Part shown: positions 1,948 to 64,000 of the stretch, in pieces
Layout of the letters: every line of letters begins with the position of its first letter
Position numbering within the stretch: position 1 is the first letter of the stretch
Assembly (NCBI GenBank): GCA_963753035.1
Contig: CAVWAW010000023.1
Coordinates: forward strand, 14,944 to 78,943
Direction of reading: 5' to 3'
Source: an uncultured Acidobacteriota bacterium
GTDB lineage: Bacteria; Acidobacteriota; Thermoanaerobaculia; Thermoanaerobaculales; Sulfomarinibacteraceae
DNA: 64,000 bases
Position numbers and translations under genes: made by a program
Notes under the pieces: generated by a model
Told to the model about the DNA's origin: nothing
Database searches by the model: none
What the model saw: only the letters and a program-made list of their open reading frames with translations

Positions 1948-2108
1948 GTTGCCTCCACCCCGCTGTGACGGGGAGAACGAGCATTGTGGAACCGGGAGCG
2001 TCGGGTGTCAACATCTCCGTGCCTGTACCCGTTCCCGTTCCCGTGACGATCCAACCCGCAGCGCGCTTCCGACCTGGTTTCCTCGTCGCGCTTCCCGAGA
2101 GTGCCCCC

Positions 2109-2510
2109 CCAAACATTGTTTGTCCCCTACGCCCAAGACAACGGCGAGGCCCTCGTTCCAAACAATGATTTGGAGCGGCACGTCCGTTCGAGGCGATGTC
2201 CGCTAACCCTCGACAGAACGCGGGTCCTGAACCGGGTCAGCGGAAGAAACCGCGGACAGCGCGCCACCTCGGGGTGCGGGGTTTGACAATGTGCCGGATC
2301 GACCTCCCGGCTCGGCGGCGCTCTCCGCACATTGTCATACCGGGCACCCCCGGAGAGCGCGACGAAGTCTGGTTTTCCGGCTCGGGGGCAGGCCGCCGGC
2401 GCCGGAACCTCGCGGTCGCAGCCCTTCAATCCTCCACCCGAGCGACCGCGATGTTCGGGCGACGCTGGGACCAGGGGCGCCCACGGCGCCCCTGGTCCCA
2501 GAAGGCCGGA
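2109..2510 (+). repeat. mosaic multi-hairpin intergenic repeat, copy R1 (modules C-like, B, H1, H2)
   Basis: Hairpins are CATTGTTTG/CAAACAATG (2109-2173), GACAATGTGC/GCACATTGTC (2285-2336), H1 at 2406-2455, and H2 GGGACCAGGGGCGCC-cac-GGCGCCCCTGGTCCC (2467-2499). The unit ends with AGAAGGCCGG. It aligns by eye with copies R2-R7. Confidence 0.8.
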
Positions 2511-2580
2511 GTCGAACACGGTATGGGTGCCTGGCATCCCCTCCCATCGCCTTGCCGGAGCGGATGACCCGAAACCCCGG

Positions 2581-3687
2581 TCACCGCTCCATCGGGTGGG
2601 GGTAGAACTCGGCGAGCTGCTCGTCGTTGGGTGGGTTGTCGAGTGCCCAGCGGGCGAAGTCGGCGATGATGGGGTCGTCGTCCGCCGCGAGTTTCTCGAG
2701 GAGGCTGCGAACCCGCCCTTGCTGGTCAATGGTGCCGAGCTGAGCGATGACGCTGCCCGTCAGGATGACCTCGCCGAAGAACCGTCGTTCGGTCAGACCC
2801 TCGGCCATCTCCATCATGGCGTCGAGGTGGCTGTCCGGCATATCCAGACGAAAGGTGCCCGATGGTTCGCGCCTCAGATACGGCGCCAGATCAACGGAGG
2901 AGATCTTGGTTGCGGTCATCATCCGCTGTGGTGCGAGTTCGCCGAGGATGATTGAAGCGAGCAGGGCGAGCTCGGTGTCGCCTTCGCGCTGGGCAATCCG
3001 ATACACACCCCGCGTCCCGATGTGAATGCAGGCGAGACCCACGAGATCATTGATGATGACCACATCCTCCTGGCGCAGGAGTCGGCCCAGCCTGATGGCG
3101 CGCCGGCAGTCCTCGAGCCCCAGATCCGGATCCTCGGTATCCACACCCCGGCCGGTCCACGAACGCGCCATGGTCAGCATGAAGAGCAGATTGGTGATCC
3201 GCGTTTCGGCACCTTCCATCCGAAAGACCTCCGGATAGAAGCTCATGGTGGCCTGGTCGACCCACGGCTCGGCCTCGAGCAACAGTTCGTCATCACCGGC
3301 GACGATCTGGCCAAGATCACCCTCGGCCTCGAACCGCCGCGACATCAGATCTTCGGCATCACGGGCCCGCGGACCCCTGTTCTTTTCGAAAAGGGCGAAG
3401 AACTCGGCCGCATTGCCGATCCCGTCGCCGAGGGGGGCGATCAGATCGAGATCCGTTCGAAACCGCACCGGCCAGGTCTTGGCCGACGGGCATGACCAGC
3501 ACGGAACCTCGAGCTCTGAGACCGTTGTCGCTCGAGGCGCCTCCAGCAGGAATTGCGGAGGGACCACCAGTCGACTCGTCTGCCACCAGCGAAGAACAAG
3601 ACGCGCTCCGAGAAGGCCTCCGAGGACCAGGACGATGGTGACGGCCGCGGTGATGATGGTTCGGACGGGGTTGGGTGCTGTCTTCAT
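2581..3687 (-). CDS. hypothetical N-terminally membrane-anchored protein, last gene of the ECF sigma operon
   Basis: Start chosen at MKTAPNPV (ATG 3687), which forms an ATGA overlap with the upstream stop. It has one TM helix (IITAAVTIVLVLGGLLGARLVL) followed by about 340 aa, apparently helix-rich by eye. No family recognised. Confidence 0.6.
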   Translation of the reverse strand: MKTAPNPVRTIITAAVTIVLVLGGLLGARLVLRWWQTSRLVVPPQFLLEAPRATTVSELEVPCWSCPSAKTWPVRFRTDLDLIAPLGDGIGNAAEFFALFEKNRGPRARDAEDLMSRRFEAEGDLGQIVAGDDELLLEAEPWVDQATMSFYPEVFRMEGAETRITNLLFMLTMARSWTGRGVDTEDPDLGLEDCRRAIRLGRLLRQEDVVIINDLVGLACIHIGTRGVYRIAQREGDTELALLASIILGELAPQRMMTATKISSVDLAPYLRREPSGTFRLDMPDSHLDAMMEMAEGLTERRFFGEVILTGSVIAQLGTIDQQGRVRSLLEKLAADDDPIIADFARWALDNPPNDEQLAEFYPHPMER

Positions 3688-4079
3688 GACTGATCCTCGT
3701 TGGTTGTGGGTGGCTCGGTTTCGCCGCGATCCCTGGAGATCCGAATCTCCCACGCGGGCAGCTCGATGATGAGGCGTTCCACGTCGATGACCTCGGCAAG
3801 CTCATCGCGTATTGCGGCCGCCGCCATCACCGGCCGGATGGTGTCCGCCGGCCCGGAAGGAGCGCCGGTACCGACGACGATGTGGCCAAAAATCAGGGCC
3901 GCCACCGACGAGGCCCAGACGAGCCGGATCGGTCGACTTCTCCAGAGCGTCAACCAGATGTCGGTTCGGCCATTCGCCGCCATGGCGGCTCGCGCCGCAT
4001 GAAGTGTACGGTCCCTGAGCTCTGGCGGCGGGACCGGCGGGCCCTGCCCTCCGGACATGGGATCAAGAGATTGATTCAT
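3684..4079 (-). CDS. putative anti-sigma factor (single-pass membrane protein)
   Basis: Start chosen at the internal MNQSLDPMSGG (ATG 4079), which overlaps the sigma gene stop by 17 nt. One TM helix (IRLVWASSVAALIFGHIVVG). The call rests on position immediately after an ECF sigma gene; no zf-HC2 motif was seen. Confidence 0.5.
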   Translation of the reverse strand: MNQSLDPMSGGQGPPVPPPELRDRTLHAARAAMAANGRTDIWLTLWRSRPIRLVWASSVAALIFGHIVVGTGAPSGPADTIRPVMAAAAIRDELAEVIDVERLIIELPAWEIRISRDRGETEPPTTNEDQS

Positions 4080-4680
4080 GGTTCTTCTCCAGCAGACGGC
4101 GGAGTTTGGCGACGGCGAGCCGGTGCCGACTCGCGGCGGTAAAGGTCGGCACCCCGGTGATCCGGCCGATCTCACGGAAGGTACAGTCAGCGAAGTGTCT
4201 GAGCAGCAGCACTTCGCGTTGTTTCTCGGACAGCCGGGCGATGAGACGTGAGAGCATTTCGGCTTCGATCCCACGGTCGGGATCGGATGTCGGCGCCTCG
4301 AAGAACGGTGCGTCCTCGATGGCCTCGGCTCGACGCCGTCGTTGTTGGCGAACCAGATCGATCGCCCTGCGGTGGGTGATGGTCAGCAGCCAACGCTTCG
4401 GATGACGCACCCTCGCCAGACGACCACCCAGCTCGGCAACCTTGACAAACACGTCCTGGACAACGTCCTCGGCGTCCTCACGGGATCCGGTGCGCCACAG
4501 AGCGAGACGATAGACATCCGTCGCAGCCAGATCGTAGAGTTCGTCGAGGGCCACGACCCGACCGTCGGCGAGGGCGGAGAAGACTTCACGCCACCGGTTC
4601 TCGGTGTCGCTGGCGCTCGAGGAGCGCACGGTGTCTCCCTCGAGCCACGCGGGTCCTGCCGGTCGGGTCATCGCCTCCAT
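4063..4680 (-). CDS. ECF-type RNA polymerase sigma-70 family factor
   Basis: Region 2 (DAEDVVQDVFVKV...WLLTITHRRAIDLVR) and region 4 (LSEKQREVLLLRHFADCTFREIGRITGVPTFTAASRHRLAVAKLR) are clearly present. Confidence 0.9.
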   Translation of the reverse strand: MEAMTRPAGPAWLEGDTVRSSSASDTENRWREVFSALADGRVVALDELYDLAATDVYRLALWRTGSREDAEDVVQDVFVKVAELGGRLARVRHPKRWLLTITHRRAIDLVRQQRRRRAEAIEDAPFFEAPTSDPDRGIEAEMLSRLIARLSEKQREVLLLRHFADCTFREIGRITGVPTFTAASRHRLAVAKLRRLLEKNHESIS

Positions 4681-4737: not shown

Positions 4738-5182
4738 CCGAACCCGATCCCGCGTCTTCTCGAGGCGCCGCAAATCCCCGTGACCTCATCGAGAATGGCC
4801 GAGGGAGCCACCTTTAGCATTGTTCGGGATTGGCATATTCCGTAGATCGGCGACTCACACCCCGAACAATGCAAAAGATGGCACCCCGTTCGAAGCCAGA
4901 ACCTCAGACCCTCCACAGAACGTGGGAAGGGGCGTGCGGCGGGGTGCCGGGCACGCTATTGTGCCGGCTATGGCCTTCCGGTACCGCGACGCGCTGCGCA
5001 CAATGGCGCTGCCGGGCTCCCTCGGGAGGCGCGACGAATTTCGGTTCTCCCGGCCACGATGGAGGCCGCCGGCGCCCGAGCATCGCGGTCGCAGCCCTTC
5101 AATCCTCCACCCGAGCGACCGCGATGCTCGGGCGACGCTGGGACCAGGGGCGCCCACGGCGCACCTGATCCCAGAAGGCCGG
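4738..5182 (+). repeat. mosaic multi-hairpin intergenic repeat, copy R2 (modules C, B, H1, H2; most complete copy)
   Basis: Module C is CATTGTTCGGG...CCCCGAACAATG (about 4815-4870). Module B is ATTGTGCC...GCACAAT (about 4950-5015). H1 has a perfect 16-bp stem at 5077-5130 and H2 is at 5140-5172, followed by CCCAGAAGGCCGG. Confidence 0.85.
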
Positions 5183-5299
5183 GGCTCAGGGAAACCCGAG
5201 TCAGCAACAGCCGCAGGGACAGGAACCGCGGCAGCGGCAGTTGTGCCTAGAAGCGCGATGCCGTACCCGATGACCCCATCGCCTCGCCGGAGCGGATGA

Positions 5300-6133
5300 C
5301 TACCGCGGTTGGAGCACGACGACGCGTTCACAGCCGCCGGGGTCTTTGATCCGCCGCGCAACGCCGAGACCCGCGGTCGAGGCGAGAGCGGCGACCGCAT
5401 CGGCCTGATCCTCGCCGATTTCGAGGATGGCGCCACCACAGTGTCTCAGCAGTCGCGGGAGATCTTCGATGAGACGTCGCACGAGATCCAGCCCGTCGGG
5501 ACCTCCATCGAGGGCCGAGGGCGGATCGTGGTGAACCTCCCTTGGCAGCGCATCGAGATCGGTGGTCGGGATGTAGGGCAGATTGGCGACGATGAGATCC
5601 CAGGGTGGGTCCATGGAGGCGGTAAGGTCAGCTTGGTGGAACTCGATCTCGACCTCATGTCGTGTGGCGTTGGTACGAGCCACAGCCAATGCCTCCGGCG
5701 AGACGTCCACTGCCGAAACCCGCCACTTCGGCCGCTCCGCCGCCAAGGTGATCGCGATACAGCCGGAACCTGTTCCGACATCGAGAACCCGCGCCGTGGC
5801 CGACAGGGGCAGATCGAGGGCGACCTGGACCACGAGTTCGGTCTCGGGTCGGGGCACCAGGACAGCGGGAGAAACCTCGAAGAATCGGCCCCAGAATTCG
5901 CACTCGCCCGTGAGGTGGTGGGCCGGCTCACCCGCGGCACGGCGGATGAGCCAGTCGCGGTAGCGAGCATCGACCTCGGCTGGAACCTCGCGCTCGGGGT
6001 GGAGCCTGAGGGTGATCTCCTCGATGCCCCACGCTCTGGCGAGCAACCACATCACCTCCCGACGGGGATCCGGAATCCCCCGCCGCTCGGGAAGCGCCTC
6101 GGCCCCCAGAGCGAGTGCCTCTTGGGTGGTCAT
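5300..6133 (-). CDS. prmC: release-factor glutamine N5-methyltransferase
   Basis: SAM-binding VLDVGTGSGCIA motif plus a substrate motif IVANLPYIP (NPPY-type). Located immediately downstream of prfA, as is typical. Confidence 0.9.
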   Translation of the reverse strand: MTTQEALALGAEALPERRGIPDPRREVMWLLARAWGIEEITLRLHPEREVPAEVDARYRDWLIRRAAGEPAHHLTGECEFWGRFFEVSPAVLVPRPETELVVQVALDLPLSATARVLDVGTGSGCIAITLAAERPKWRVSAVDVSPEALAVARTNATRHEVEIEFHQADLTASMDPPWDLIVANLPYIPTTDLDALPREVHHDPPSALDGGPDGLDLVRRLIEDLPRLLRHCGGAILEIGEDQADAVAALASTAGLGVARRIKDPGGCERVVVLQPR

Positions 6134-6165: not shown

Positions 6166-6242
6166 TCGATCCCGATCCCGTTCCTGATCCCGTTCCCGAA
6201 TCGCCAGCGCGGGAACGGGATCAGGAACGGGATCGGGATCGA
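6166..6242. repeat. perfect 33-bp inverted repeat (11-nt spacer) built of CCCGWT-type hexamers, between prfA and prmC
   Basis: TCGATCCCGATCCCGTTCCTGATCCCGTTCCCG (6166-6198), spacer aatcgccagcg, then the exact reverse complement (6210-6242). Checked base by base. Confidence 0.95.
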
Positions 6243-13616: not shown

Positions 13617-13710
13617 AGGGGCATGGTACCGCGAACAGGTCGCAGATCGCAGACCACACAGATGGAATCAGATTCCATTTCAATCCACAGCATTAGCCAG
13701 CGAGAGTGCC

Positions 13711-13965
13711 CAATGAAACCGCAAAGACGCGGAGTGCGCGAAGATCCCACAAAGTCGAACGATCGATCCGGGCTCCCTCTGATCTCCATCGCAAGACCAT
13801 TCAGACTCTTTGCGATGGATCAAAGAGACGTCTTGGCGGCAGCTTTGCGATCCTGGCGTCTTCGCGGTTCCATTGTCCGCATCGGTCCAGATCGTCGATC
13901 AACGAAGTCAACGATCGCTGAAGCTGGGTTCGGATCTGTGTCAATCTGTGTGATCTGTGGGTGCG
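13711..13965. repeat. long imperfect hairpin repeat (family 3) plus ATCTGTGT short tandem repeats
   Basis: Outer arms are CAATGAAACCGCAAAGACGC.. (13711-13755) and ..GCGTCTTCGCGGTTCCATTG (13843-13875). Inner hairpin is CCATCGCAA/TTGCGATGG (13787-13819). Tail is ATCTGTGTCAATCTGTGTGATCTGTG (13934-13959). Related to 19816-19985. Confidence 0.7.
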
Positions 13966-19815: not shown

Positions 19816-19985
19816 CATAGTGGAACCGCAAAGCCGCTAAGGTCGCAAAGGTGCCGCAAAGTTTTTGCTGACTCATCGCAGACATCGAGGCGGAATGACG
19901 CGTTCCGGTTAGCAGAGAGCCCGGGTCAAAACCGCGATGCTTTGCGGGATCTTCGCGATCTTCGCGTCTTGGCGGTTCCATTGTG
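19816..19985. repeat. long imperfect hairpin repeat (family 3), second copy
   Basis: Arms are CATAGTGGAACCGCAAAGCCGC...CGCAAAG (19816-19861) and CTTTGCGGGATCTTCGCGATCTTCGCGTCTTGGCGGTTCCATTGTG (19940-19985). They look largely complementary by eye (not counted). Contains a tandem ATCTTCGCG. Confidence 0.7.
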
Positions 19986-20105
19986 CCTTCCGGCACGGAT
20001 CGCGGCTGCCGGAAGTCCAAATTCGCAGCGGTTGTCCTACCAGCACCTTGGAGAAGCTACCGATGTTTCGGTCGCGGACACGCAGCTGTGCCACAATGCG
20101 CGCCC

Positions 20106-22305
20106 ATGAGCAGACTCACCGACGATCTCAACGACCCCCAGCGTGAAGCAGTCTCCTACGGCACCGGACCGTTGTTGGTTCTCGCCGGCGCGGGTTCGGG
20201 CAAGACCCGTGTCCTGACCTACCGTATCGCCTATCTCCTGGCCAACGACATGGCCCAAGACACCGAGATCACCGCCGTGACATTCACCAACAAGGCCGCC
20301 CTCGAGATGCGCGAGCGGGTCGAGACCCTCCTCGGCCAGCCACTGCGCGGCGGTTTTGTCGGCACCTTCCACCGCTGGTCATTGGAGATCCTGCGCCGCG
20401 ACCCGCAGGCCGCCGGTCTGCCCCGGCGCTTTGTCATCGCCGACACCGACGAACAGCGCCAGATGATCAAACGCGAGCTCAAGAAACTCGGCCTCGATCC
20501 CAAGGAGCACCCGCCCCGCGCCCTGCTCGGGCCGCATCTCCGGTCTCGTCAACCGCGGCATCAGCCAATCGACGCTTTGCCTCCCGCGCCGCCGACTCCC
20601 AGTCGGAGCTCCTCGCCCGCATCTGGGAGGGCTACGAGGCGCGAAAAAGGGCTGCCGGTGCGGTGGATTTCGACGATATGCTGGTGCTCGCGCGAGATGT
20701 TCTGAAAGACAACGCCGAGATCCGCAGCCGGATTCAGAACCGCGCCCGTTGGCTCCTGGTCGATGAGTTCCAGGACACCAACGCCCTCCAGATGGATCTT
20801 CTCTCAATCGTGCTCTCGGGCGAACGCAACCTCACCGCGGTCGGTGATGAGGACCAATCCATCTATCGTTGGCGCGGCGCCGAGATGGACAACATCCTCG
20901 CCTTCGAACGCCACTTCCCGGGTGCATCGGTGGTCAAGCTCGAGGAGAACTATCGCTCCACCGCGCCCATCCTGGCCACCGCCGGCGCCCTCATCGCCGC
21001 CAACCATCAACGGCGGGGCAAGACACTCTTCACCAGCCGCGAGGGCGGCGAGGCGGTACGGCTCTATGTCGGCTCGGATGAGCGGGCCGAGGCGCGCTGG
21101 GTCGCCGACCGATTCCAGGAGCTGCAGCGCCGGTACTCGCTCGGCGAGATGGCGGTGCTCATGAGGACCAACGCCCAGACGCGCTCCTTCGAAGAAGAAT
21201 TCACCAGCCGACACATGGCCCACCGGGTCATCGGCGGGCTCCGATTCTGGCAACGGGCCGAGGTCAAGGACGCCCTCGCCTATCTCCGCCTCGTCCTTCG
21301 ATCCGATGACACCATCGCCTTCGAGCGGGTGGTCAACGTGCCCACCCGCGGAATCGGCGCCGCCACCATCGACATTCTCCGTACCCGAGCCGACCGCGAC
21401 GGCACCACCGTGGTCGAGGCCGCTCGTCAAGCTTCCGGACGAACTCAGTCCCCGGGCGCGGATCTCCCTCGAGCGTTTCTTCCGGATCCTCGACGAGGCC
21501 CGCGAGCAACGAACCGAGCTCGATCCCGGGGATCTCGTCGGCTGGCTGCTCGAAGCCTCGGGATTGCTCGCGATGTACGACGGCGACAACGAGGAGAAGA
21601 CGGCTCGGCGCGAAAACCTCCAGCAGCTGGCGGCGGCGGTGGCCGAGGCCGCCGGGCGGGGCCAGGATCTCGAGGCCTTTCTCGACGCCATCTCCCTGCT
21701 CGAGGATCAGGACGAGGAATCCACCCCCGACGCCATCAGCCTCATGACCCTGCACGCCGCCAAGGGCCTCGAGTTCGATGTCGTGATCCTCGCCGGTTTC
21801 GAGGACGGTCTGCTGCCCCACTCCAACTCGCGCGATGAACCCGAGTCGCTGGAGGAGGAACGGCGGCTCGCCTATGTCGGGATGACCCGCTCCCGACGAT
21901 GGCTCGCCATGACCGTCGCCGCGGACTCGATTCCTCTTCGGAACACGGCTCCGGACCCGCCCATCAAGATTTCTCGAGGAGCTGCCCGAGGACTGCTACA
22001 GCGATGTCTCGGACTCTCCCCTGACCGCATCGCCGTCGAGCTTCGGTCTCGGCGCTCCGGCGACCGCGGCTCGATCTCCACGTCCCGGCCCGGCGGGCCG
22101 CTCGACGAAGAAGGTCGCGGCGACGGTGGTCGACGAATCGGGTCAGGGGTGGCGGCCCGGCGACCGGGTCCGGCACGGCAAGTTCGGAACCGGGGTGGTC
22201 CTCGCCTGCCAGGGCACCGGACCCCGCCTCAAGCTGGTGGTCTTCTTCGACCGAGCAGGGAGAAAAACCCTCGTCCCGACAATCGCCAAACTCGATCGGC
22301 TCTGA
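20106..22305 (+). pseudogene. uvrD: UvrD/PcrA-type DNA helicase II interrupted by four +1 frame disruptions
   Basis: Homology runs through four frames. Frame 1: MSRLTDDLNDPQREAV..GAGSGKTRVLT...PRALLG. Frame 2: RISGLVNRGISQ. Frame 3: FASRAADSQ..VDFDDML..VDEFQDTN..GDEDQSIYRWRGA..NYRST...TTVVEAAR. Frame 4: LPDELSPRARISLERFF...LHAAKGLEF..RLAYVGMTRS..TVAA. Frame 5: SRFLFG..PSRFLEELPED...KLDRL stop at 22303. Shifts are near 20530, 20578, 21430 and 21924. Confidence 0.85.
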
Positions 22306-22309
22306 CCTG

Positions 22310-22697
22310 CCATCGCACCATCGCATTCTCAACGCAAAGGCGCAGAGCCATCGCGAAGATTGGCTCACATTGACACGGAACACGCGTAGCATTCTTCGGC
22401 ACCGCACCTCCAGGAAGCGAATGCCCCGAGGTCATCTCGGGCGACGTCCGGCTTCTGGAGATTCGCCGGAATCTGACAGAGTCCGTGCGATGACCCATTG
22501 TTGCGATGTTGAGTCTCAGCGCCTTTGCGCCTTTGCGCCTCTGCGTTGAAGTGCGATGGTGCGACGGCCCTAGCCTGCGATGGCTCTGCGTCTCTGCGTC
22601 TCTGCGTTGAAATGCGATGGACCGATGGCCCCGACCATTGCGATGACAGAGGAATATCCATGCACCTCGATCTGTGTCCTTCTGTGTGATCCGTGAC
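22310..22697. repeat. long-hairpin repeat (family 2) with 8-mer tandem repeats (CCTTTGCG, TCTCTGCG)
   Basis: Left arm is CCATCGCACCATCGCATTCTCAACGCAAAGGCGCAGAGCCATCGC (22310-22354). Right arm is GCGATGGCTCTGCGTCTCTGCGTCTCTGCGTTGAAATGCGATGG (22577-22620). Tail is ATCTGTGTCCTTCTGTGTGATCCGTG (22669-22694). Related to 55660-55790. Confidence 0.7.
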
Positions 22698-30201: not shown

Positions 30202-30407
30202 TCCGCATCCTCCGTTGGGTCGTTTTGCGCCACCGTCATCGTGGCCGGGTCAGGGTACCACCCTCGTTCAGCCCGTGCCCGTGCCCACCTCCGAGTCCGT
30301 AACCGTTCCCGTTCCCGAAATGATCCGCTCCCGCTCTTGAATTCTAGCGGCAGGGGCAGAGACTGCGTCGGTGGCAGAGGCAGTGCGCAGGCCCTAATTG
30401 ACCGCGG

Positions 30408-30559
30408 GAAAGGGGCGTGCGGCGGGGTGCCGGGTACGCCATTGTGCAGGAACCGCCATCCGGCACCGCCACGCGCTACGCTCAATGGCGCTACCGGGCT
30501 CCCTCGGGAGGCGCGACGATCTTCGGCCTTCTGGGACGTCCGACGTCCCAGAAGGCCGG
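30408..30559 (+). repeat. mosaic repeat, partial copy R3 (module B plus H2, no H1)
   Basis: GGGGCGTGCGGCGGGGTGCCGGGTACGCCATTGTGC...GCTCAATGGCGCTACCGGGCTCCCTCGGGAGGCGCGAC, then a 17-bp palindrome CGGCCTTCTGGGACGTC-c-GACGTCCCAGAAGGCCG. It abuts the glmU stop codon. Confidence 0.8.
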
Positions 30560-30578
30560 AGTCGATTTCCGTCGGCGC

Positions 30579-34989: not shown

Positions 34990-35049
34990 CGCGATGGAAG
35001 GGTTGCGCACGAGGGCTCGCGGAATTGGCCTCGAACGGACGTGCCGTCC

Positions 35050-35530
35050 TTGATCATTGTTCGGATTCTCTGATTTTGTCGTCGGTGGATCCTCCGGGCT
35101 GAACAATGTCAAGGGGGGCACTCTCGGCCACCCGCGACGGGAGCATCGGGTTCGGAGGCGCGTGACTGGAAAAGGCACACTCAGCCCCGGCCTTCTGGGC
35201 CGCCGTGACGCCTTCGCGTCCCAGCAACCCAGCGTCGCACCATCGGCGTGGTCGCTCGTGGGTTGATTGGAAGGGCTGCGACCACGCCGATGGCACGCCG
35301 GCGGCCTGCCTCGTAGCCGGAAAAGCAGACCGAAAAGCGCTCCCCGAGGGAGCCCGGTTAGACATTGTGCGGGAAGCGCCGCGAAGCCTGGTGGTCGATC
35401 CGGCACAATGTCAAACCCGGCACGCCCGGTGGAGGCGATGTCCGCGTTTCCTTGTTGCGCATCTTCCTTGTGCCTCGAAAGAACGCGGGACGGGTTCCTT
35501 GAGGGTACGCGGTGTTGGCCTCGAACGAGG
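35050..35530 (-). repeat. mosaic repeat copy R4 (inverted orientation; order on plus strand C, H2, H1, B)
   Basis: CATTGTTCGG/CTGAACAATG (35055-35110), H2 35197-35230, H1 35240-35293 (stem CCATCGGCGTGGTCGC), and module B GACATTGTGC/GCACAATGTC (35361-35412). Confidence 0.8.
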
Positions 35531-35705
35531 CCTGTCGACTTTCTTCCCGACACGAAAAGGGAATTCACAAGTTTTTACGTCAACCAACCAGGGTGTTCCG
35601 CGTACAATCTAAGGTCACTCGTCGGCACACATCACTAACCGACTCATGTCGTTCGATGTTATTGTGTTGGCTGAAAAATTGACGAATGGACTCAAGGAGG
35701 CTTCG

Positions 35706-36857
35706 ATGCGCCGTCTGATCATCGCTGTTGTCGTACTCGCCCTGGTGGCGACCGCTGCGCCTGTTTTTGCCCTCAACTCCGGAACCGACATCATTGTTCC
35801 TGCCGCCGGCCGTGGCGCACCGTGGGCCACCGATCTTTATATTGCAAACCCCGGCAACGAATCAGTGACCGGTTCGGTTTTCTGGTTGGTCCGGGATCAG
35901 GCCAACCCGAACCCGGTGTCGTTCGATTTCACGCTGGCGCCGGGTGAGACCGGTGTCTTCGAGGACGTCATCCTCGCCGACTTCGGTCTCTCGTCGGCTG
36001 GTGGCGCGTTCTTCGTCTCCGCCACTGGCGCGGTGATCGTCAACTCGCGGATCTTCGCCTCCGACGGCACGGCCACCTTCGGCCAGGGTTTTGAAGGAGT
36101 GCCGGTGGGCGGAGCAACCCAGAGCGGCAGCATCGCAACCGTGGTGGGTCTGAGCTTCACCAGCGAATTCCGAACCAACATCTACGCCACGGCCGGTGCT
36201 AACGGCGCCACCATGACCCTTCGGTTGCTCGATCCAGCCGGTACCCAATTCGATTCGGCCGATCTGACGCTGGGCGCCTGGGAACCCTATCTCAAACGCG
36301 TCAACCAACTCTTTCCCAGTGTCGCCAACTTCGACAACGCAACATTGGTTGCCGATATTACGGCCGGCTCGGTAGTGGTCGGTGCCTCAAAGGTCGACAA
36401 CGCGTCCACCGATCCGACGACGCTCGAGTCCGACGCCACCGCTGGTGGATCGACATCCGTTGACGGCACCTACCAGATCTCGATCTATGATTCGGCCCTC
36501 TTCGCCGCCGGCGGTAATTTCGTGATCGATTCAGACATCGTCACCCAGATCAACGCCACCTACTTCAACTGGGACAAGCTCGAGGGCGGCGAACCGGCCT
36601 GCACCCTGCAGTTCCTCTGGGGCCTCGGCATGAGCCCGACTCCGGTTGCCGATTTCGCCTCGGGCGTCAGTTTCTCCGACAGCTACGCCTCCACCGGCAG
36701 CGGCGTCATGACGTGGACCGTAACCTTCACTGTCGAGGACAACATGGTCATCGACGGCACGGTTGCCGCGGTCGGCTCCGATTTCACCGATCCCGACGAG
36801 CTCGGCTGCAACGGCACCTTCCCATCGCTCCCTCTCAGAGGCGGCAAGATGGAATAG
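35706..36857 (+). CDS. secreted hypothetical protein carrying one copy of a ~200-aa uncharacterised module (shared with the 1.4-kaa protein at 42372-46710)
   Basis: AAGGAGG lies 6 nt before ATG 35706. Signal peptide MRRLIIAVVVLALVATAAPVFA. Module landmarks are IVPAAGRGAPWATDLYIANPG, TFGQGFEGV, EFRTNIYATA and ASKVDNASTDPTTL. Confidence 0.75.
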   Translation: MRRLIIAVVVLALVATAAPVFALNSGTDIIVPAAGRGAPWATDLYIANPGNESVTGSVFWLVRDQANPNPVSFDFTLAPGETGVFEDVILADFGLSSAGGAFFVSATGAVIVNSRIFASDGTATFGQGFEGVPVGGATQSGSIATVVGLSFTSEFRTNIYATAGANGATMTLRLLDPAGTQFDSADLTLGAWEPYLKRVNQLFPSVANFDNATLVADITAGSVVVGASKVDNASTDPTTLESDATAGGSTSVDGTYQISIYDSALFAAGGNFVIDSDIVTQINATYFNWDKLEGGEPACTLQFLWGLGMSPTPVADFASGVSFSDSYASTGSGVMTWTVTFTVEDNMVIDGTVAAVGSDFTDPDELGCNGTFPSLPLRGGKME

Positions 36858-36929: not shown

Positions 36930-37400
36930 CCTCGCGCTTCTGAACCCGATGCTCCCGTCGCGGGTGGCCGAGGGAGCCACCTTTAGCATTGTTCGGGACC
37001 AACGTCGCACTGCACATCGGCGGTTCGCAACCCGAACAATGACAAAAGATGGCACCCCGTTCGAGGTCGGTTCCGCGCACTCTCCAGGTAAACATCCCGC
37101 GTTCTTTCGATCCACAAGGAGGAGGCGCATCAAGGAACCGCGGACATCGCCTTCACCGGGCGTGCCGGGCTTGACATTTTTCTACTCCACCACGTTCAGG
37201 CCATGAGCGCGACCGGAAAAACGTCAAGGGGGGCTCCCAAGGGACGCGCGATTCGGTCTGCTATTCCGGCTACGAGGCAGGCCGCCGGCGCGCCATCGGC
37301 GTGGTCGCAGCCCTCCCCGCAACCTCCGCGCGACCACGCCGATGGTGCGACGCTGGGCCGCTGGGACGCCAAAGCGTCACAGCGGCCCAGAAGGCCGGGG
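36930..37400 (+). repeat. mosaic repeat copy R5 (C, degenerate B, H1, H2)
   Basis: GAACCCGATGCTCCCGTCGCGGGTGGCCGAGGGAGCC, then CATTGTTCGGG/CCCGAACAATG. H1 is at 37293-37345 with a stem identical to R4. H2 is GGGCCGCTG-g-GACGC-caaa-GCGTC-a-CAGCGGCCC, then AGAAGGCCGG. Confidence 0.8.
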
Positions 37401-37460
37401 CCGAGGGAGGGATCATTCGTTTCCGGGCACGCGCCTCCGACTTGATTCTCCTTCCGAGCT

Positions 37461-50129: not shown

Positions 50130-50212
50130 GGCCGGGAGGGGTATTGTACGCACAGACCCTGTGACTGTAAAGAGAGCGCTCCGCAGAGACGCTCTCCCGC
50201 GTCCGCGTCCGG

Positions 50213-50416
50213 TCCCGATCCCGTTCCCGATCCCGTATCCCGATCCCGATCCCGATGGTGCAGTGGCTGCGTCCGAGGCTGCGTCAGGTCACGCTGCCTA
50301 TCTACTGCCGCGACCGCGGACGCTGCTCCTGCCTCGGCCCCGGTCGCTGCCGCTGTCCCGGGCGCTGTCACGGCCCCGGCCGCGGAAACGGATACGGATA
50401 CGGATACGGATACGGA
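50213..50416. repeat. hexamer microsatellite pair in inverted arrangement: (CCCGWT)n at 50213-50256 and (CGGATA)n at 50388-50416
   Basis: The left run is TCCCGATCCCGTTCCCGATCCCGTATCCCGATCCCGATCCCGAT. The right run is ACGGATACGGATACGGATACGGATACGG. Related hexamers occur at 2028-2043, 6166-6242, 30298-30318 and 63168-63250. Confidence 0.8.
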
Positions 50417-50432
50417 CGCCCGATTCTTTCAG

Positions 50433-50672
50433 CCCCGGCCTTCTGGGCCGCCCTTGGCGACCCAGCGTCGCATGAGCAGCGTGGTCACACGAGGGTCGAT
50501 TGAAAGGGCTGCGACCACGCTGCTCATGCGCCGGCGGCCTCCTTCTGAGCTTGAGCAGAAGACTTCAAGGCGCCTCCCGAGGGAGCCCGGTCGGCATTTG
50601 TGCGTGATGCGCTGCATTGCCGGGAGGTCGCGCTGGCACAAATGCGGACCCGGCACGCCCGGTGTGGCGCGT
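50433..50672 (-). repeat. mosaic repeat copy R6 (inverted; H2, H1, B)
   Basis: CCCCGGCCTTCTGGG, H2 at 50445-50463, and H1 at 50471-50528 (stem CATGAGCAGCGTGGTC). Module B is CATTTGTGC/GCACAAATG (about 50596-50645). Confidence 0.8.
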
Positions 50673-50743
50673 TCTCCTGGTGCCCAGCTATGACCCTCGA
50701 TCACTCTCGAGTAGAATCACCACGCGCGCTTTCGCGCGCAATC

Positions 50744-50831: not shown

Positions 50832-51137
50832 GCAATTCGTCGGACGAATTGCGGCGGCGCTCACCGGGTTCGCGCCGATAGGAACCGTCTCAGGGGCTGG
50901 GACCGAGTCAGCTTCCGGCACCGCGTTCGGGGCAGCTGACGGCGGCACCGTCCGCATCCGTGCCTGTGCCCGAGACCATGACCGATGAATCCTCGGTCCG
51001 TGAACCCGTTTTTGGCCCCGGCACCCTCTGGCCCCCTTCCGGGAGTCAACACGCCGCAGAGTTCTGAGAAAGCGTCATGTCATACTGATTGTGGTTTGTG
51101 CCCGCCACGCTTAGGACTCGGGAGGAGACTCGACGAT

Positions 51138-52202: not shown

Positions 52203-52277
52203 GGGCAACAGGTTCATACATTCGGTGATTCTCGGCAGACGCCGACAAACTAAAACCGAATGTGCGAACCTGGCACC
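52203..52277 (+). repeat. hairpin module D, copy 1
   Basis: CAGGTTCATACATTCGGTGATTCTCGGCAGACGCC (52209-52243), then ACCGAATGTGCGAACCTGGCACC pairing back. The 35-mer is identical to 55109-55143. Confidence 0.85.
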
Positions 52278-52314: not shown

Positions 52315-55035
52315 CTACTCCCCTTCTTTAAGCAGGGCCGTGTAGATGTCTCCCGTCATCTCACCGGCATTGAAGACAAGCCGGTCGGCTCCTACCTCAA
52401 GCGTCCACATGTGCTTCGCAAACGACAACATCTTCATGGACGAGCCGTGCGCATGGGCCACCGGAAACGAATCGTCCATGGGCTCTTTGGTAACCGGGTC
52501 GAGGGACTGGCCCCAGACGCACAGGAAGTCATCGCGTTCCGAGAGGTAGTACACGGTGTCGCCATCGGCGGACCACCGGGGGGAGCCGACCCAGGAGTCG
52601 CCCGCCGCGATCTGCACCCACTGTTCGGGAGGCGCTGGAGGTTCCCGGACAGGTACCAAGAAAAGGGCAACCGTACCGTCAGGCTCGCCGGTCTGGATTG
52701 CGAGCCATCGGTCGTCCCGGGACAGATCCGTGTCCAGCAGCGCCTGATTCTCGAGTTCGAGGACCGTCCTCTCGACCCCATCGACGATACGAAGGTGCGA
52801 CAGCCTCCGGCCCCAGTCGACCAGGACATGGGCCCCGTCGGTGAAGAAGTCCACGGCGAGGCAATCTCGACAGAGCTCACGGCCCACCGGGTCATCCGTG
52901 GGCGCCACCGACGTGACCCACTGTCCGTCGACGCGATGCCGCCAGGCGACGAGCGAGCCGTCTCCACTCAGCCGCGGAAAAAGCGACGTGACCGCTATGG
53001 GATAGGTCAACGGCACCGTTTCTGTTCCAGTCGTCCGATCCTGGATGTGGATCTCGTTACGTGGGCTGTCTCGGGACCCGGCGTAGGTGGAGTACACAAG
53101 GCGGTTGCCGTCGCGGGTCAGGGAGAATGAAAATTTCGGAGAGGCGTCGTCGGTGATCGGTCGGAGGGCGCCGACGGCTCGCCCGCTTTCCCGGTCGAGA
53201 GCGACTTCCCACAGGTGAACCACCCAGGAGAAGCGGTCCAAGGCCATGCGGCCGTCGGCGGACACCTTCGGCACCCATGTCATCCCCGGCCCGGTGGTGA
53301 GCGACTCCACCGGTGCGCTCAGATGCCCGTCCTCGGAGATCGGCGCCCGGTAGAGGTTCATCCCCTCGATGGTCGTGCCGGAGATGAAGAGGAGCTGTCC
53401 CGGCAGCCAGACGGAGGGGAAGTTGACCATGTCGGGCATGACACCGGCCGCCTTCGCCCCGCTCGACCACGGTTCGCCGCCCTCAACCGGCGCAACCCAC
53501 CAGTCCTGTCGGCCGGGATCGTCCAGGGGACCGCCGAAGAAGATCACCAGCCGGCCATCGGGTGAAAAAACCGGACCTGAGCTGCTGGGTGGTGGGCGCA
53601 CCCCCCAGCCCGGGACGAGGGGTGCCGGCCGGCCTCCGTGAATGGGAGCTCTGAACATCCGGCGAAGGAACCCGGGTGACCACGCCGGGTCTTCCGAGTA
53701 GACGAATTCGGTGCCGTTCGGCGCAAACTGGGGAAAAATCCCGCGATCGGCCACTTTTTTCAATCCGCCACCGAGGGCGTTGATAATGTAGATCCCTCCT
53801 CCGTCCCGATGCGACCCGAATATGAGGCGCGAGCCGTCGGGGGAGAACGACGGGTGCCAATCATCCGCGGGGTGGTCGGTGAGTCGAGTCGGCTGAGGTT
53901 GGTTGATGTGCCGCACCCAGATGTCGGAGCCGCCCTCGCCGGCTCGATCCGACGAAAAGGCCACGAGATTGCCATCGGGCGAGATCGCCGGAGCGAAGCT
54001 GGCGCCGGCGTCATAGGTCAGGCGGCGGAGCTCCAGCGGTCGCGATCCCGCCTGATCCCCACGATTGAAGATCGTTGCCACCGCGACCGCTATCACGACG
54101 ACGCCGGCTATCCCGAGTACGACGGGCAAAGGGACCGACCGACGGCTCTTTTCGGGACCCGGCACGACCCTGCGGCCGGAGTCGGTGTCCTCCTTGAGAT
54201 CCTCGAGCACCGCCCTGAGATCCGACAGGCTCTGCCAACGTCGCGACGGTTTCTTGCGCAGACACCGAAGCACCGCCCGATCCACCTCCGGGGGCAGAGC
54301 CGGCACGATGGCGGTCGGCGGCTCCGGTTCCTCTTCGCGGATGGCCGCGATGGTCTCTAGAATCGTCCCACGGCGAAACGGATGCTGTCCTGTCAGCATC
54401 TCGTACATCAACACACCGAAGGCGAAGACATCGCTCCGAGTGTCTACGGGCTCCCCGGACGCCTGTTCGGGAGACATCCAACCAACGGTCCCAAGAACCG
54501 CCCGTTCTTCGGTCAGCGACGCCTCGTCGGGAGCCAGGGTCGGGGCCTCCGGGTGCGAAAACGGCGTCTCGGTGAGCTTGGCGAGCCCGAAGTCGAGCAC
54601 CTTGACGCCGTCCGAGGTCACCATCACATTGGCCGGTTTGAGATCCCGGTGCACGATCCCGGCCTCGTGTGCTCGCGCCATGGCGTCGGCGGTCCCGATG
54701 CCCAGGCCGAGCGCCTCGCTCAACGGTGGCCGTCGCCGCGCCAGGAGAGACTCCAGCGTTTCTCCCTCGATCAGCTCCATGACTAGCACGTCTTGATCCT
54801 CAACCGTCACCACGTCGTGCACGGCAACGATCCCGGGATGGTTGAGGGCGGAGGCGGCCTTCGCTTCCTGTAAGAATCGCTGCCGGCGATCCGGATCCGA
54901 AGTTTTGCCTGGCGGCAGCACCTTGAGCGCGACAAACCGATCGAGCAGCGTGTCCCGAGCCTTGTAGACGACCCCCATGCCGCCCTGGCCGAGCCGCTCG
55001 ACGATCCGATAACGATCGATGGTCGTGCCGATCAT
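52315..55035 (-). CDS. transmembrane Ser/Thr protein kinase with periplasmic TolB-like (PD40/WD40) beta-propeller repeats
   Basis: LGQGGMGVVYKA..VALKVL..HRDLKPANVM..DFGLAK..GWMSPE. One TM helix (VVLGIAGVVVIAVAVATIF). Repeated SPDG..(I/V)(A/I)F..DR.G...I(W/Y) units. Confidence 0.92.
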   Translation of the reverse strand: MIGTTIDRYRIVERLGQGGMGVVYKARDTLLDRFVALKVLPPGKTSDPDRRQRFLQEAKAASALNHPGIVAVHDVVTVEDQDVLVMELIEGETLESLLARRRPPLSEALGLGIGTADAMARAHEAGIVHRDLKPANVMVTSDGVKVLDFGLAKLTETPFSHPEAPTLAPDEASLTEERAVLGTVGWMSPEQASGEPVDTRSDVFAFGVLMYEMLTGQHPFRRGTILETIAAIREEEPEPPTAIVPALPPEVDRAVLRCLRKKPSRRWQSLSDLRAVLEDLKEDTDSGRRVVPGPEKSRRSVPLPVVLGIAGVVVIAVAVATIFNRGDQAGSRPLELRRLTYDAGASFAPAISPDGNLVAFSSDRAGEGGSDIWVRHINQPQPTRLTDHPADDWHPSFSPDGSRLIFGSHRDGGGIYIINALGGGLKKVADRGIFPQFAPNGTEFVYSEDPAWSPGFLRRMFRAPIHGGRPAPLVPGWGVRPPPSSSGPVFSPDGRLVIFFGGPLDDPGRQDWWVAPVEGGEPWSSGAKAAGVMPDMVNFPSVWLPGQLLFISGTTIEGMNLYRAPISEDGHLSAPVESLTTGPGMTWVPKVSADGRMALDRFSWVVHLWEVALDRESGRAVGALRPITDDASPKFSFSLTRDGNRLVYSTYAGSRDSPRNEIHIQDRTTGTETVPLTYPIAVTSLFPRLSGDGSLVAWRHRVDGQWVTSVAPTDDPVGRELCRDCLAVDFFTDGAHVLVDWGRRLSHLRIVDGVERTVLELENQALLDTDLSRDDRWLAIQTGEPDGTVALFLVPVREPPAPPEQWVQIAAGDSWVGSPRWSADGDTVYYLSERDDFLCVWGQSLDPVTKEPMDDSFPVAHAHGSSMKMLSFAKHMWTLEVGADRLVFNAGEMTGDIYTALLKEGE

Positions 55036-55102: not shown

Positions 55103-55172
55103 GGGTGCCAGGTTCATACATTCGGTGATTCTCGGCAGACGCCCACTACGAAAGACCGAATACGCGAATTCG
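55103..55172 (+). repeat. hairpin module D, copy 2
   Basis: GGTGCCAGGTTCATACATTCGGTGATTCTCGGCAGACGCC...ACCGAATACGCGAATTCGG. Same orientation as copy 1; the two copies bracket the kinase gene. Confidence 0.85.
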
Positions 55173-55205
55173 GATTTGGCTTCGGTCCGCAAGCCCGTTC
55201 TTCAA

Positions 55206-55448
55206 CCCCGGCCTTCTGGGACGCCTCAGGCGTCCCAGCGTCGCACGGGCAGCGTGGTCATTCGGTGGTGGATTGAAAGGGCGGCGACCACGCTGCCCGC
55301 GCGAGCGGCGGCCTCCTTCCAAGCCGGAACAGCCGGTAATCAGCGTCCTACCCGTGGAGTGCCCGGTCCCCATTTGTGCGGGAGGCGGCGCGTTGCCGGG
55401 AGATCTTTCCTGCGCAAATACGGACCCGGCACATCCCGGTGTGGCGGT
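55206..55448 (-). repeat. mosaic repeat copy R7 (inverted; H2, H1, B)
   Basis: CCCCGGCCTTCTGGGACGCC-tca-GGCGTCCCAG, and H1 at 55246-55299 (stem CGGGCAGCGTGGTC). Module B is CCATTTGTGC...GCGCAAATA. Confidence 0.8.
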
Positions 55449-55659
55449 GTTTCTCGCGTCCTGTTGCGGCCAAGGGGTCTCGGTCATGGCGGGAGATCAC
55501 GGCATGAGCCGCTTGGTCGCCCTCCCAACCCTCAATGAGTGGGTCGCGGGGCATGAATGCCCCGCCTACAGCTTTGAACACCTCGAGGTCATCCATCCCC
55601 GGTTGCCCAGGATCCTGTCACCCTTCAAGCCACGCCTCGCCCACCTTCAACTGCGATGC

Positions 55660-55790
55660 CTCTGCGCCTCCTTGCGATGGATGATCTCCGGGTCCATTGC
55701 GATGCAACCCAACGATGGTGCGATGACTCTGCGTCTTCGCGCCTCTGCGTCTCTGCGTTCAATTGCGATGATGCGATGACTTGGTGACCG
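55660..55790. repeat. family 2 repeat (GCGATG / CTCTGCG short-repeat rich), second locus
   Basis: ...GTGCGATGACTCTGCGTCTTCGCGCCTCTGCGTCTCTGCGTTCAATTGCGATGATGCGATGAC. Aligns with 22560-22650. Confidence 0.7.
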
Positions 55791-55836
55791 CTTGGCGCGT
55801 CCGACGCGCCACCGCGATTCGTCCGACGAATCGCCT

Positions 55837-62988: not shown

Positions 62989-63129
62989 GTGACCCGGGTC
63001 ACACCGGGATCGCGCCGATCGGAGCCATTTAAATGGCTCGTGGTGCTACGAAAACCTCCGCCCCCGAGATCGCAGCCGTTTCCAGCTACGCGGAATCTTG
63101 GCGCCTCCCGGGCGTGTCCGGGCTGCGTC

Positions 63130-63280
63130 CGTAGCAACGGCAGGGGCAGCGGCAGCGTCCGTGACTGTGGCAGTGGCGGTGGCAGTGGCAGTGGCAGTGG
63201 CAGTGGCCGTGACCGTTACCGTATCCCTGGCCGCGACAGTTACCGTATCCGTAGCTGCGGTCGCGTTCCGGCACGTCACG
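63130..63280. repeat. hexamer microsatellite block, (GGCAGT)n core at about 63168-63212
   Basis: TGGCAGTGGCGGTGGCAGTGGCAGTGGCAGTGGCAGTGGCCGTGACCGTTACCGTATCC...GTTACCGTATCCGTAGC. Lies between the convergent fabL and uvrA genes. Related to the 50213-50416 block. Confidence 0.8.
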
Positions 63281-63461: not shown

Positions 63462-64000
63462 TCAACCCTGCGATGGACTCAACAACGGCTTCAAATATCG
63501 ACCGGTGTGCGACGCCTTGCAGGCGGCGACCATTTCCGGGGTTCCCTCGACGAGGACCTCACCGCCGCCGTCGCCACCCTCGGGGCCGAGATCGACGATC
63601 CAATCGGCGGTCTTGATGACATCGAGGTTGTGCTCGATGACGATGATCGTGTTACCCCGATCGACCAGGGCGTGGAGCACTGCGAGGAGCTTCCGCACGT
63701 CATCGAAATGGAGACCGGTGGTCGGTTCGTCGAGTAGATAGAGGGTTTTGCCCGTGGCGCGCTTGGCCAGTTCCCGAGAGAGCTTGATCCGCTGCGCCTC
63801 ACCACCCGACAGAGTCGTCGCCGGTTGGCCGAGGTGGAGATAGTCGAGACCGACGGACACCAGGGTGTCGAGCACCCGGACGATCTTGGGCACCGAGGCG
63901 AAGAGTTCCTGCGCCTGGCGGACCGTGAGATCGAGGACCTGGGCGATGTCGAGTCCCTTGTAGTGAACCTCAAGGGTTTCCCGGTTGTAGCGCCGCCCCC
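63462..64000 (-). CDS. uvrA: excinuclease ABC subunit UvrA, C-terminal part; 5' end beyond the window
   Basis: [91 protein letters not shown]. The frame stays open to position 64000. Confidence 0.93.

Follow-up and report, generated by a model that had tools for sequence, protein, structure and literature searches.

We analyzed a 64,000-nt stretch of the genome of an uncultured acidobacterium (contig CAVWAW010000023.1; this whole stretch is called the window) and found, by repeat finding, a seven-copy alignment and nhmmer searches, that seven of its intergenic regions carry copies of one family of large, hairpin-rich repeats. The same seven places had been pointed out in an earlier note made from the letters of this DNA, and each of them does carry a copy. 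The core unit of the family, named B-H1-H2, is ~255-265 nt long and bears a hairpin (B), a linker and a three-way junction; a second module of ~155 nt, named C, is separable from it. Comparison of the aligned sequences shows the resident copies to be under apparent purifying selection for a single-stranded fold. On balance, and with moderate confidence, we regard the family as an old, lineage-specific, non-autonomous structured repeat akin to repetitive extragenic palindromic (REP) sequences, bacterial interspersed mosaic elements (BIMEs) and BOX elements, and as one that is under selection, most simply at the RNA level.

Fold, covariation and strand of the core unit

Folding of an alignment of 76 full-length core copies (alignment A3) with RNAalifold yielded 45 pairs, 29 of which show compensatory changes. 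Hairpin B was extended beyond this result, and pairing was counted on the resulting 54-pair structure. In this structure 95.1% of the cells pair, compared with 85.5 ± 0.3% after shuffling and 31-52% when partners were slid by 1-3 columns. Double-sided changes were observed in 33 of the 54 pairs (18.9 ± 1.8 expected) and the covariation score was 0.283 versus 0.111 in the control; none of 500 shuffles reached the observed values. A compensated A/T swap in B that the earlier note had described is found again in columns 70/119 of the alignment, with AU in 50 copies and UA in 14.

From 5′ to 3′ the core is composed of a small hairpin, the long interrupted hairpin B (~25 bp, arms ACATTGTGCC/GGCACAATGT, with a variable tip), the linker and the three-way junction, in which an invariant GGCC...GGCC closing stem (P1) surrounds H1 and H2. 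H1 comprises 21 pairs including a G·A mismatch and carries a semi-conserved loop of 24 nt (AGCCCUUC.AAUC.ACC..CG.GCGAC); H2 is stacked directly on H1 and occurs in a long and a short version. A scan of all column pairs supported no pseudoknot, only the nested helices and the small 5′ hairpin (columns 44/51). Pairing of the linker CCGGCU with the invariant 3′ GGCCGG was considered as an alternative and rejected, as it is broken in 11 copies with CAAGCU. The copy from which the analysis started (window 2254-2516) folds with -159.6 kcal/mol, z = -6.3 relative to shuffled sequences, whereas its antisense strand reaches z = -4.8.

The two strands also differ in the mispairs that they tolerate. In the paired columns of the 76 copies G-U or U-G combinations occur 143 times and A-C or C-A combinations 30 times, and the excess is present in each hairpin (26:8 in B, 83:12 in H1 and 33:10 in H2). 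Since the copies sit in both orientations, a mutational strand bias cannot explain this excess, which indicates that the plus strand is selected as a folded single strand. The earlier note had seen a thin hint of RNA-level function in two H2 copies whose stems close only with G-U pairs; the closure at 35195-35232 is real, and across the 76 copies the hint has become strong evidence. The same numbers bear on the possibility that the repeat acts as duplex DNA, be it as a binding array for a regulator or nucleoid protein with palindromic operators or as a cruciform insulator. Such a role would suit intergenic, palindromic copies with some invariant sequence blocks that often lie just upstream of promoters (dnaX and gene383, the conserved 383-aa gene at 35646-36857). 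However, the stems co-vary while their sequence changes freely, which is a signature of pairing and not of a sequence-specific duplex site, and a 4.8-fold excess of G-U over A-C is impossible on duplex or cruciform DNA; we hold a duplex function to be highly improbable. RNA is the simplest carrier of the fold because G-U pairs are tolerated, loops and junction are invariant and no replication-strand bias is seen. The selected molecule would then be an RNA from the sense strand, a structured and probably protein-bound element and not a promoter, terminator or coding sequence.

Occurrence, modules and conservation in place

The window has a G+C content of ~64% and the gene content of an ordinary chromosome (argB, prmC, prfA, citrate lyase, icd, pyrF, tsaD, glmS, tal, recR, dnaX, gap-pgk-tpi-secG, glnS/gltX, lptD and four tRNAs); its nearest relatives are metagenome-assembled genomes (MAGs) of Thermoanaerobaculia/Thermoanaerobaculales. 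We ran an exact pattern for H2, GCGACGCTGGG-N8-38-CCCAGAAGGCCGG, against a species-representative genome collection (596 Gb), in which its 24 specified bases were estimated to match ~0.1 times by chance. Matches were found in more than 82 loci (a lower bound) of ~12 independent MAG assemblies, with many per genome. Among the matches listed nearly all belonged to Acidobacteriota/Thermoanaerobaculia MAGs, and a few to MAGs carrying other phylum labels. One of the latter is the MAG DATHSO01 (SMAG_U16053, labelled Candidatus Methylomirabilota; L034, L057 and other contigs, where L numbers denote the related loci), which carries the repeat and shares synteny with the window at 78-81% identity; judged from these sequences, its label or binning is probably wrong. 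The earlier note had reckoned with an assembly artefact confined to one contig; with more than 82 loci in ~12 independent MAGs, the family is not an artefact. By the sequences compared, the core is evidently a repeat restricted to one acidobacterial clade, the Thermoanaerobaculia. An association with phages was rejected, as the H2 pattern was absent from the viral contigs searched.

In the window and the related loci (82, amounting to 564 kb) an nhmmer profile of the core produced 127 hits, ~80 of them full length, and in a depth map of the same sequences the core (~260-280 nt) was matched 60-100 times but the flanking C module (~155 nt) only 5-10 times. C was found without a core in L014 and L084 and the core without C at window copies 6 and 7. 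Since the two occur independently and in unlike copy numbers, the single C-B-H1-H2 unit of 400-450 bp that the earlier note had proposed is a frequent juxtaposition and not one element; its start at 2109 moreover cut off the first ~45 nt of C, which spans 2062-2216. The description as a mosaic, modular, hairpin-rich extragenic repeat able to form arrays proved apt: all copies are intergenic, L084 contains the array C-core-C-core, and tandem cores are found in L012, L065 and L001. The copies of the window are as follows (E values from nhmmer; parts of core copy 1 mapped from the 76-copy alignment).

2062-2216, plus strand: C module, copy 1 (C profile, E = 1.7e-34)
2254-2516, plus strand: core copy 1, the focal copy (E = 1.5e-67); B 2270-2294 / 2327-2349; P1 GGCC 2391-2394 with GGCC 2504-2507; H1 2397-2418 / 2443-2464, loop 2419-2442; H2 2465-2474 / 2493-2501
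4761-4917, plus strand: C module, copy 2 (E = 1.7e-39)
4927-5191, plus strand: core copy 2 (E = 1.5e-62); B 4940-4964 / 4998-5021; H1 5070-5091 / 5116-5137; H2 5138-5147 / 5165-5174
30407-30560, plus strand: core copy 3, an H1-less deletion derivative (profile positions 3-128 only)
35008-35164, minus strand: C module (E = 4.2e-39)
35179-35443, minus strand: core copy 5 (best hit, E = 4.9e-76); B 35427-35403 / 35370-35348; H1 35300-35279 / 35254-35233; H2 35232-35223 / 35204-35195
36931-37086, plus strand: C module (E = 1.1e-41)
37142-37407, plus strand: core copy 4 (E = 1.7e-62); H1 37286-37307 / 37331-37352; H2 37353-37362 / 37381-37390
50426-50677, minus strand: core copy 6 (E = 3e-65)
55200-55451, minus strand: core copy 7 (E = 7.6e-60)

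Four cores thus lie in plus and three in minus orientation. The arms of C copy 1, CATTGTTTG / CAAACAATG, are located at ~2110-2122 and 2160-2173 and are accompanied by a 3′ tail (GGCACGTCCGTTCGAGG...CCCTCGACAGAACGCGGG). Core copy 3 had been listed as B and H2 only, and H1 is indeed lacking: B and H2 are kept, with P1 and H2 merged into a perfect palindrome (GGCCTTCTGGGACG..CGTCCCAGAAGGCC). An independent H1-less copy is found at L087 3082-3268. Core copies 4 and 5 form an inverted pair, copy 4 with the B variant GACATTTTTC/GAAAAACGTC. The C module at 35008-35164 is found on the 3′ side of core copy 5, with the dnaX start ~60 nt further downstream, and the one at 36931-37086 past the terminator of gene383. 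Copies 6 and 7 have a short H2 and no C; copy 6 is placed between two divergent tRNA-Ser genes and copy 7 between a Ser/Thr kinase gene and lptD (neighbours named by Pfam).

The C module turned out to be related to the core. Its profile weakly matches the reverse complement of B regions in nhmmer, and in a joint alignment the reverse-complemented leader, B and first ~25 nt of the linker match along the whole C hairpin and for ~25 nt past it. By this alignment C is evidently the same long hairpin as B in opposite orientation, so that a C module and the core following it present one hairpin type head to head; no other trait of the system is as BIME-like. Covariation is present in C as well (columns 53/142, AU 16 and GC 10; columns 63/132, UA 15 and CG 10).

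Comparison with related genomes revealed both gain or loss and conservation of copies. In L014, whose flanking genes are 88% identical to the window at the nucleotide level, the C module at 5209-5365 (91% identity to window 2062-2216) is joined directly to the sequence that begins at window 2526; relative to L014, a core has thus been discretely inserted or deleted at window 2225-2525. This filled/empty pair (window 2224|2526 versus L014 5373|5404), the only one at hand, showed no clean target duplication, with a weak resemblance of AGAACGCGGG / CGAACACGGT, and an automated screen of the flanks for empty sites was overwhelmed, since the flanking DNA consists of repeats as well. The core consensus has no terminal inverted repeat (TIR), its 5′ end (..GACACGCGGAAAAC..) and 3′ end (..CCCAGAAGGCCGGGGCTGA) not being complementary. 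Two direct copies bracket a 2.7-kb segment (window 2581-4680) encoding a 390-aa hypothetical protein and an extracytoplasmic function (ECF) sigma factor; at L014 4404-4713, between argB and prmC, this segment is missing and the order of the flanking modules is rearranged. We considered it as a gene cassette on account of the bracketing copies, but copy size, mixed orientation and lack of an integrase speak against this.

The two sites beside gene383 are occupied in several genomes. Upstream, core and C are present in the window, the core alone in L083 (91% aa identity of the gene), and in L084 (82% aa) C + core is found twice in tandem; the L083 site orthologous to the C module at 35008-35164 has hexamer arrays instead. 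Downstream, the window carries C and core, L083 C and an internally deleted core (orthologous to copy 4, the deletion falling between two CCCCGCA microhomologies), L084 C alone and L057 the core alone. The dnaX/gene383 sites are therewith occupied in the window, L083, L084 and L057, whereas the core is absent in L088, L089 and L090; the two sites of more distant relatives (76%, 70% and 63% aa) are short and contain no core. At L088 2065-2330 a GGCGCC-N4-GGCGCC hairpin array with TGGGCGTGA spacers replaces the core, and several kinds of repeat seem to be drawn to this site. The inverted flanking copies suggested a composite transposon with gene383 as cargo, a candidate that was discarded, as gene383 belongs to the conserved, single-copy core genes and its synteny is conserved as well.

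Where a copy is shared, it is well conserved. Between the window and L083 identity is 93.4% for the core, 98.1% for C and 93.5% for the linker, compared with 75-80% at codon third positions and 78-87% in other intergenic DNA; the C module at 36931-37086 is 98% identical to L083 5243-5397. Core copy 5 has orthologues with 93% identity in L083 and 89% in L084 (codon third positions 65-80% for L084), and changes in its paired columns mostly retain pairing: in the L083 pair 5 of 108 paired versus 16 of 177 unpaired columns differ, with pairing kept in four of the five paired changes. The elements shared with L014 are 85-91% identical versus 75-80% at codon third positions, among them core copy 2 (L014 4889-5142, 87%) and C copy 2 (L014 4716-4873, 85%). 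Between these same genomes no alignment is possible for the DNA that directly adjoins the core. By these alignments, orthologous copies are apparently conserved above the synonymous-site level.

Dispersed copies within one genome are much less alike, with a median identity of 67-81% and never more than ~92%; identities above 95% were seen only between adjacent tandem copies. Without dispersed copies above ~92% identity there is no sign of recent transposition. Presence/absence differences between relatives, which the earlier note had proposed as a check for mobility, are thus real, but with orthologues conserved and dispersed copies diverged they do not speak for recent mobility. Recent change appears to be local: copies have been duplicated in tandem, have lost H1 precisely at the hairpin (twice independently, in window copy 3 and in L087) or have become chimeric, as in the H1 of L014. 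An excess of 5′-truncated copies was discarded as a retroelement signature, as the loci had been picked through the 3′ H2 motif. We suppose that intergenic sites of one subclade were colonized in the past, with neither TIRs nor a recognizable target duplication involved, and that later change would have come mainly from local tandem duplication, hairpin-precise or microhomology deletion and recombination between copies. A selfish origin followed by retention as RNA structure would be the same in kind as supposed for REP/BIME, BOX, ERIC and bcr repeats.

Searches for associated genes and competing explanations

Pfam scans of the 48 window open reading frames (ORFs) gave housekeeping functions or no hit and, as the earlier note had stated for the window, no transposase, RAYT or integrase; reverse transcriptase (RT) was likewise not found. 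The 25 most frequent Pfam families among 144 genes flanking copies include no transposase or RT. An all-against-all ORF comparison of the 82 loci detected no TnpA, TnpB, IscB, other transposase or RT; recurrent ORFs were spurious ones over the repeat and a PF05635 (IVP) gene. Rfam 15 contained no family matching the element at gathering thresholds or at E <= 10 (2.6 kb; single copy): in the window only the four tRNAs pass, and the best scores of the element were 11-18 bits to eukaryotic miRNA or lncRNA models, which is noise. The RNA of the signal recognition particle, often encoded upstream of dnaX, was considered as the identity of the repeat and dropped, as Rfam gave it no support. A retron or an RNA of a diversity-generating retroelement (DGR) was rejected as well, with no RT near the window copies or among the frequent flanking families.

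Several observations weigh against selection at the RNA level. The G-U asymmetry would also arise in single-stranded DNA and cannot by itself separate the two, and the C module lacks a G-U bias (22:17). P1 and the junction are without covariation support because they are invariant, so that this part of the model is predicted from energy and invariance only. No consistent sigma-70- or ECF-like promoter and no intrinsic terminator was found inside the copies or at a fixed distance from them. Orientation relative to neighbouring genes, called with a crude gene finder, is random; of the seven window copies three (copies 1-3) are antisense to the genes on both sides, where read-through transcription would yield the wrong strand. 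Both the lack of a promoter and the random orientation genuinely weaken the RNA reading. In addition, the related loci were ascertained through the H2 pattern, and conservation in place comes from a few orthologous pairs, that with L014 including a chimeric-looking, mismatched H1.

A rival explanation is an element that acts as single-stranded DNA, with hairpins recognized and cut by a Y1/HUH transposase (a RAYT or one of the acidobacterial TIR-associated type) whose gene lies elsewhere in the genome. The repeat would then be an oversized REP/REPIN, C and B a head-to-head dimer, and the strand asymmetry a trace of the strand processed by the enzyme. The inverted identity of C and B resembles REP head-to-head dimers, conservation is strand-specific, the one filled/empty pair has neither TIR nor target-site duplication (TSD), as HUH transposition predicts, genuine GTAG-type REP doublets occur in related genomes and one begins at window 63985, and Acidobacteria encode a distinct group of transposases of this kind (PMC3733652). 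However, Y1 transposases are absent from the window ORFs and the frequent flanking families, the IVP gene is the only recurrent gene of the loci, and the units are 3-6 times as long as REPs and carry no GTAG/CGTC tag. Near-identical dispersed copies, as expected from recent activity, are missing, the four plus and three minus copies are unlike a targeting of the lagging-strand template, and the conserved three-way junction and H1 loop would be left unexplained. We consider this explanation not very likely.

The recurrent gene encodes a four-helix-bundle protein of 117-134 aa (PF05635, E = 7e-16, "23S rRNA IVS protein") and recurs beside repeats in related genomes; it was seen at the following loci.

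L002 3453-3803: PF05635 gene
L019 4264-4608: PF05635 gene
L054 2791-3138: PF05635 gene
L064 2385-2735: PF05635 gene
L077 6212-6553: PF05635 gene
L085-L087 2501-2875: PF05635 genes

PF05635 also includes the DGR protein Avd. A search at E <= 1e-15 gave 3604 clusters at 90% identity, the best 120 of which are all 79-100% identical to the query. Each PF05635 unit bears an upstream tandem array of dodecamers that repeat the first bases of the unit itself, and a long hairpin at its 5′ end, the upstream arm of which covers Shine-Dalgarno sequence and ATG start codon, a protection against read-through like that of insertion sequences; a REP doublet often follows downstream. The unit looks like a selfish gene. 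A core in the same orientation follows all five intact PF05635 genes of the H2-selected loci but was found in only one of three loci selected by protein, and an obligatory unit of gene and core was therefore rejected; the link is suggestive and not obligatory.

The cores might instead be a family of genes, present in many copies, each encoding a free-standing non-coding RNA (~260 nt, with a three-way junction) under its own unrecognized promoter and active in trans or in a ribonucleoprotein (RNP), for which the PF05635 protein would be a possible partner. Such genes would account for the covariation, the asymmetry in G-U pairs and the invariance of junction and loop, for conservation in place above the synonymous-site level and for an orientation independent of neighbouring genes; at two of the five H2-selected loci the core begins ~30 nt past the stop codon of the PF05635 gene. 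This stands against the absence of a promoter or terminator, a very high copy number (seven in 64 kb, and tandem arrays) and the tolerance of deletion derivatives and chimeric copies. Moreover, the single core downstream of a PF05635 gene in the unbiased sample of three is H1-less, and the window has seven copies but no PF05635 gene. We judge dedicated RNA genes to be unlikely. A bolder version, in which the core is a new large class of three-way-junction RNA, part of a mobile or formerly mobile RNP with the expanded PF05635 genes, and solo cores spread like SINEs through an RNA intermediate, is decidedly unlikely; the autonomous form may in that case consist of dodecamer array, 5′ hairpin masking the ribosome-binding site, ORF and structured tail. 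The massively expanded Avd-like PF05635 gene is maybe a more interesting lead than the repeat.

Further repeats were noted in the window and in related loci. Arrays with a period of 6 nt, (CCGNNN)n or (GGCAGN)n, make up much of the intergenic DNA around the repeats, and up to 150 nt away from 79 full copies, those in CCG phase on the sense strand of the element prevail ~3:1 over those in CGG phase. Hairpins of REP type with a GTAG tag, often in inverted doublets (TTGTAGCGCCGATCT..AGATCGGCG and an inverted partner), constitute a family separate from the core repeat.

Window 2030-2050, 5190-5250, 30291-30385, 50197-50254, 50371-50418, 6166-6242 and 63121-63205: 6-nt arrays; at 6166-6242, between prmC and prfA, two arrays form a perfect 33-bp palindrome
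Window 63985-64000 (begins at the window end), L085 2903-2985, L087 2899-2980 and L084 ~2690-2740: GTAG-tagged REP hairpins
Window 52209-52268 and 55109-55168: direct repeats of 60 nt (87% identical, arms CATTCGGT...ACCGAATG) that bracket a Ser/Thr kinase-PD40 gene (52315-55035)
Window 50832-50852 (just after tRNA-Ser(TGA)) and 55814-55834 (just downstream of lptD): a perfect 21-nt hairpin, GCRATTCGTCSGACGAATYGC
Window 22515-22631 and 55727-55782: tandem 8-nt units (CTCTGCGT/CTTTGCGC) followed by GTTGAAGTGCGATGG, another small intergenic family
Window 13708-13754, 13832-13918 and 19940-20026: a repeat of ~87 nt (CTTGGCGG..GCGTCTTCGCGGTTCCATTG) that lies close to gene starts, in both direct and inverted orientation
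Window 19983-22373: a UvrD/PcrA-type helicase whose sequence is divided among three ORFs that overlap and differ in frame (19983-20705, 20663-21838 and 21306-22373), to be explained either by a pseudogene or by an erroneous frameshift in a MAG from long reads

Relation to known repeats and implications

The repeat resembles REP/BIME or BOX sequences, and no described family was matched. REP units are palindromes of 20-40 bp with a GTAG or CGTC tag (PMC3733652). The repeat shares with REPs and BIMEs that hairpin units occur extragenically, in high copy number and in a mosaic, that the same hairpin alternates in orientation (C versus B) with specific linkers in between, and that copies are long-lived in place with possible roles at the RNA level. 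It differs in that its hairpins measure ~80-110 nt within a unit of ~255-265 nt that contains a three-way junction, in that neither the core consensus nor the C alignment contains GTAG, and in that no RAYT is in view among the window ORFs and the frequent flanking families. GACG precedes H2, so that on the opposite strand CGTC follows the stem on its 3′ side, which is not the arrangement of the REP family. The term BIME-like used in the earlier note thus holds for the alternation of one hairpin but not for membership in the REP/BIME family.

BOX elements of Streptococcus pneumoniae (boxA-B-C) and ERIC/IRU sequences of enterobacteria (~127 nt) are structured intergenic repeats without an obvious transposase and are predicted to act as folded RNA on neighbouring transcripts. 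The likeness lies in the modular or structured intergenic repeat with no obvious transposase, but there is no sequence relation, the phylum is another one, and the present units are larger, have a three-way junction and are oriented independently of their neighbours. The bcr repeats of the Bacillus cereus group and the small non-coding repeats (SNRs) of Deinococcus radiodurans are lineage-specific interspersed repeats of 100-400 nt with mosaic modules. Some of them show compensatory changes and strand-specific G-U pairs that point to RNA function; target duplications occur in several bcr families, which resemble true miniature inverted-repeat transposable elements (MITEs), whereas neither TSD nor TIR was seen here.

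MITEs such as Correia/NEMIS and the IS200/IS605-derived palindrome-associated elements (PATEs) with omega/reRNA scaffolds are likewise non-autonomous, structured, intergenic and multi-copy. The element fails as a MITE because no TIR or TSD was found. Derivatives of IS200/IS605 also lack both; however, the ends of the present element are not similar subterminal hairpins, as B and H2 are unrelated, TnpA, TnpB and IscB are missing from the 564 kb of loci, and the window copies are mixed in orientation (four plus, three minus). Unlike HEARO-like omega RNAs, it produced no Rfam hit to HEARO or related models, even at E <= 10. Integron attC sites, finally, are 57-141 nt long with R''-L''/L'-R' cores, lie in one orientation and accompany an integrase, in contrast to units of ~260 nt in mixed orientations without an integrase in the window.

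The family adds a well-supported structured element absent from Rfam, from a poorly studied acidobacterial class dominated by uncultured members, and is unusually large for an interspersed repeat with its conserved three-way junction. Its copies mark hot spots of intergenic rearrangement, as at the 2.7-kb segment with the hypothetical and ECF sigma factor genes between two copies, and short-read assemblies of these organisms are probably fragmented by them. Being conserved above the synonymous-site level, the copies are more than junk and, if transcribed, would make up a new candidate RNA family, present hundreds of times per genome.

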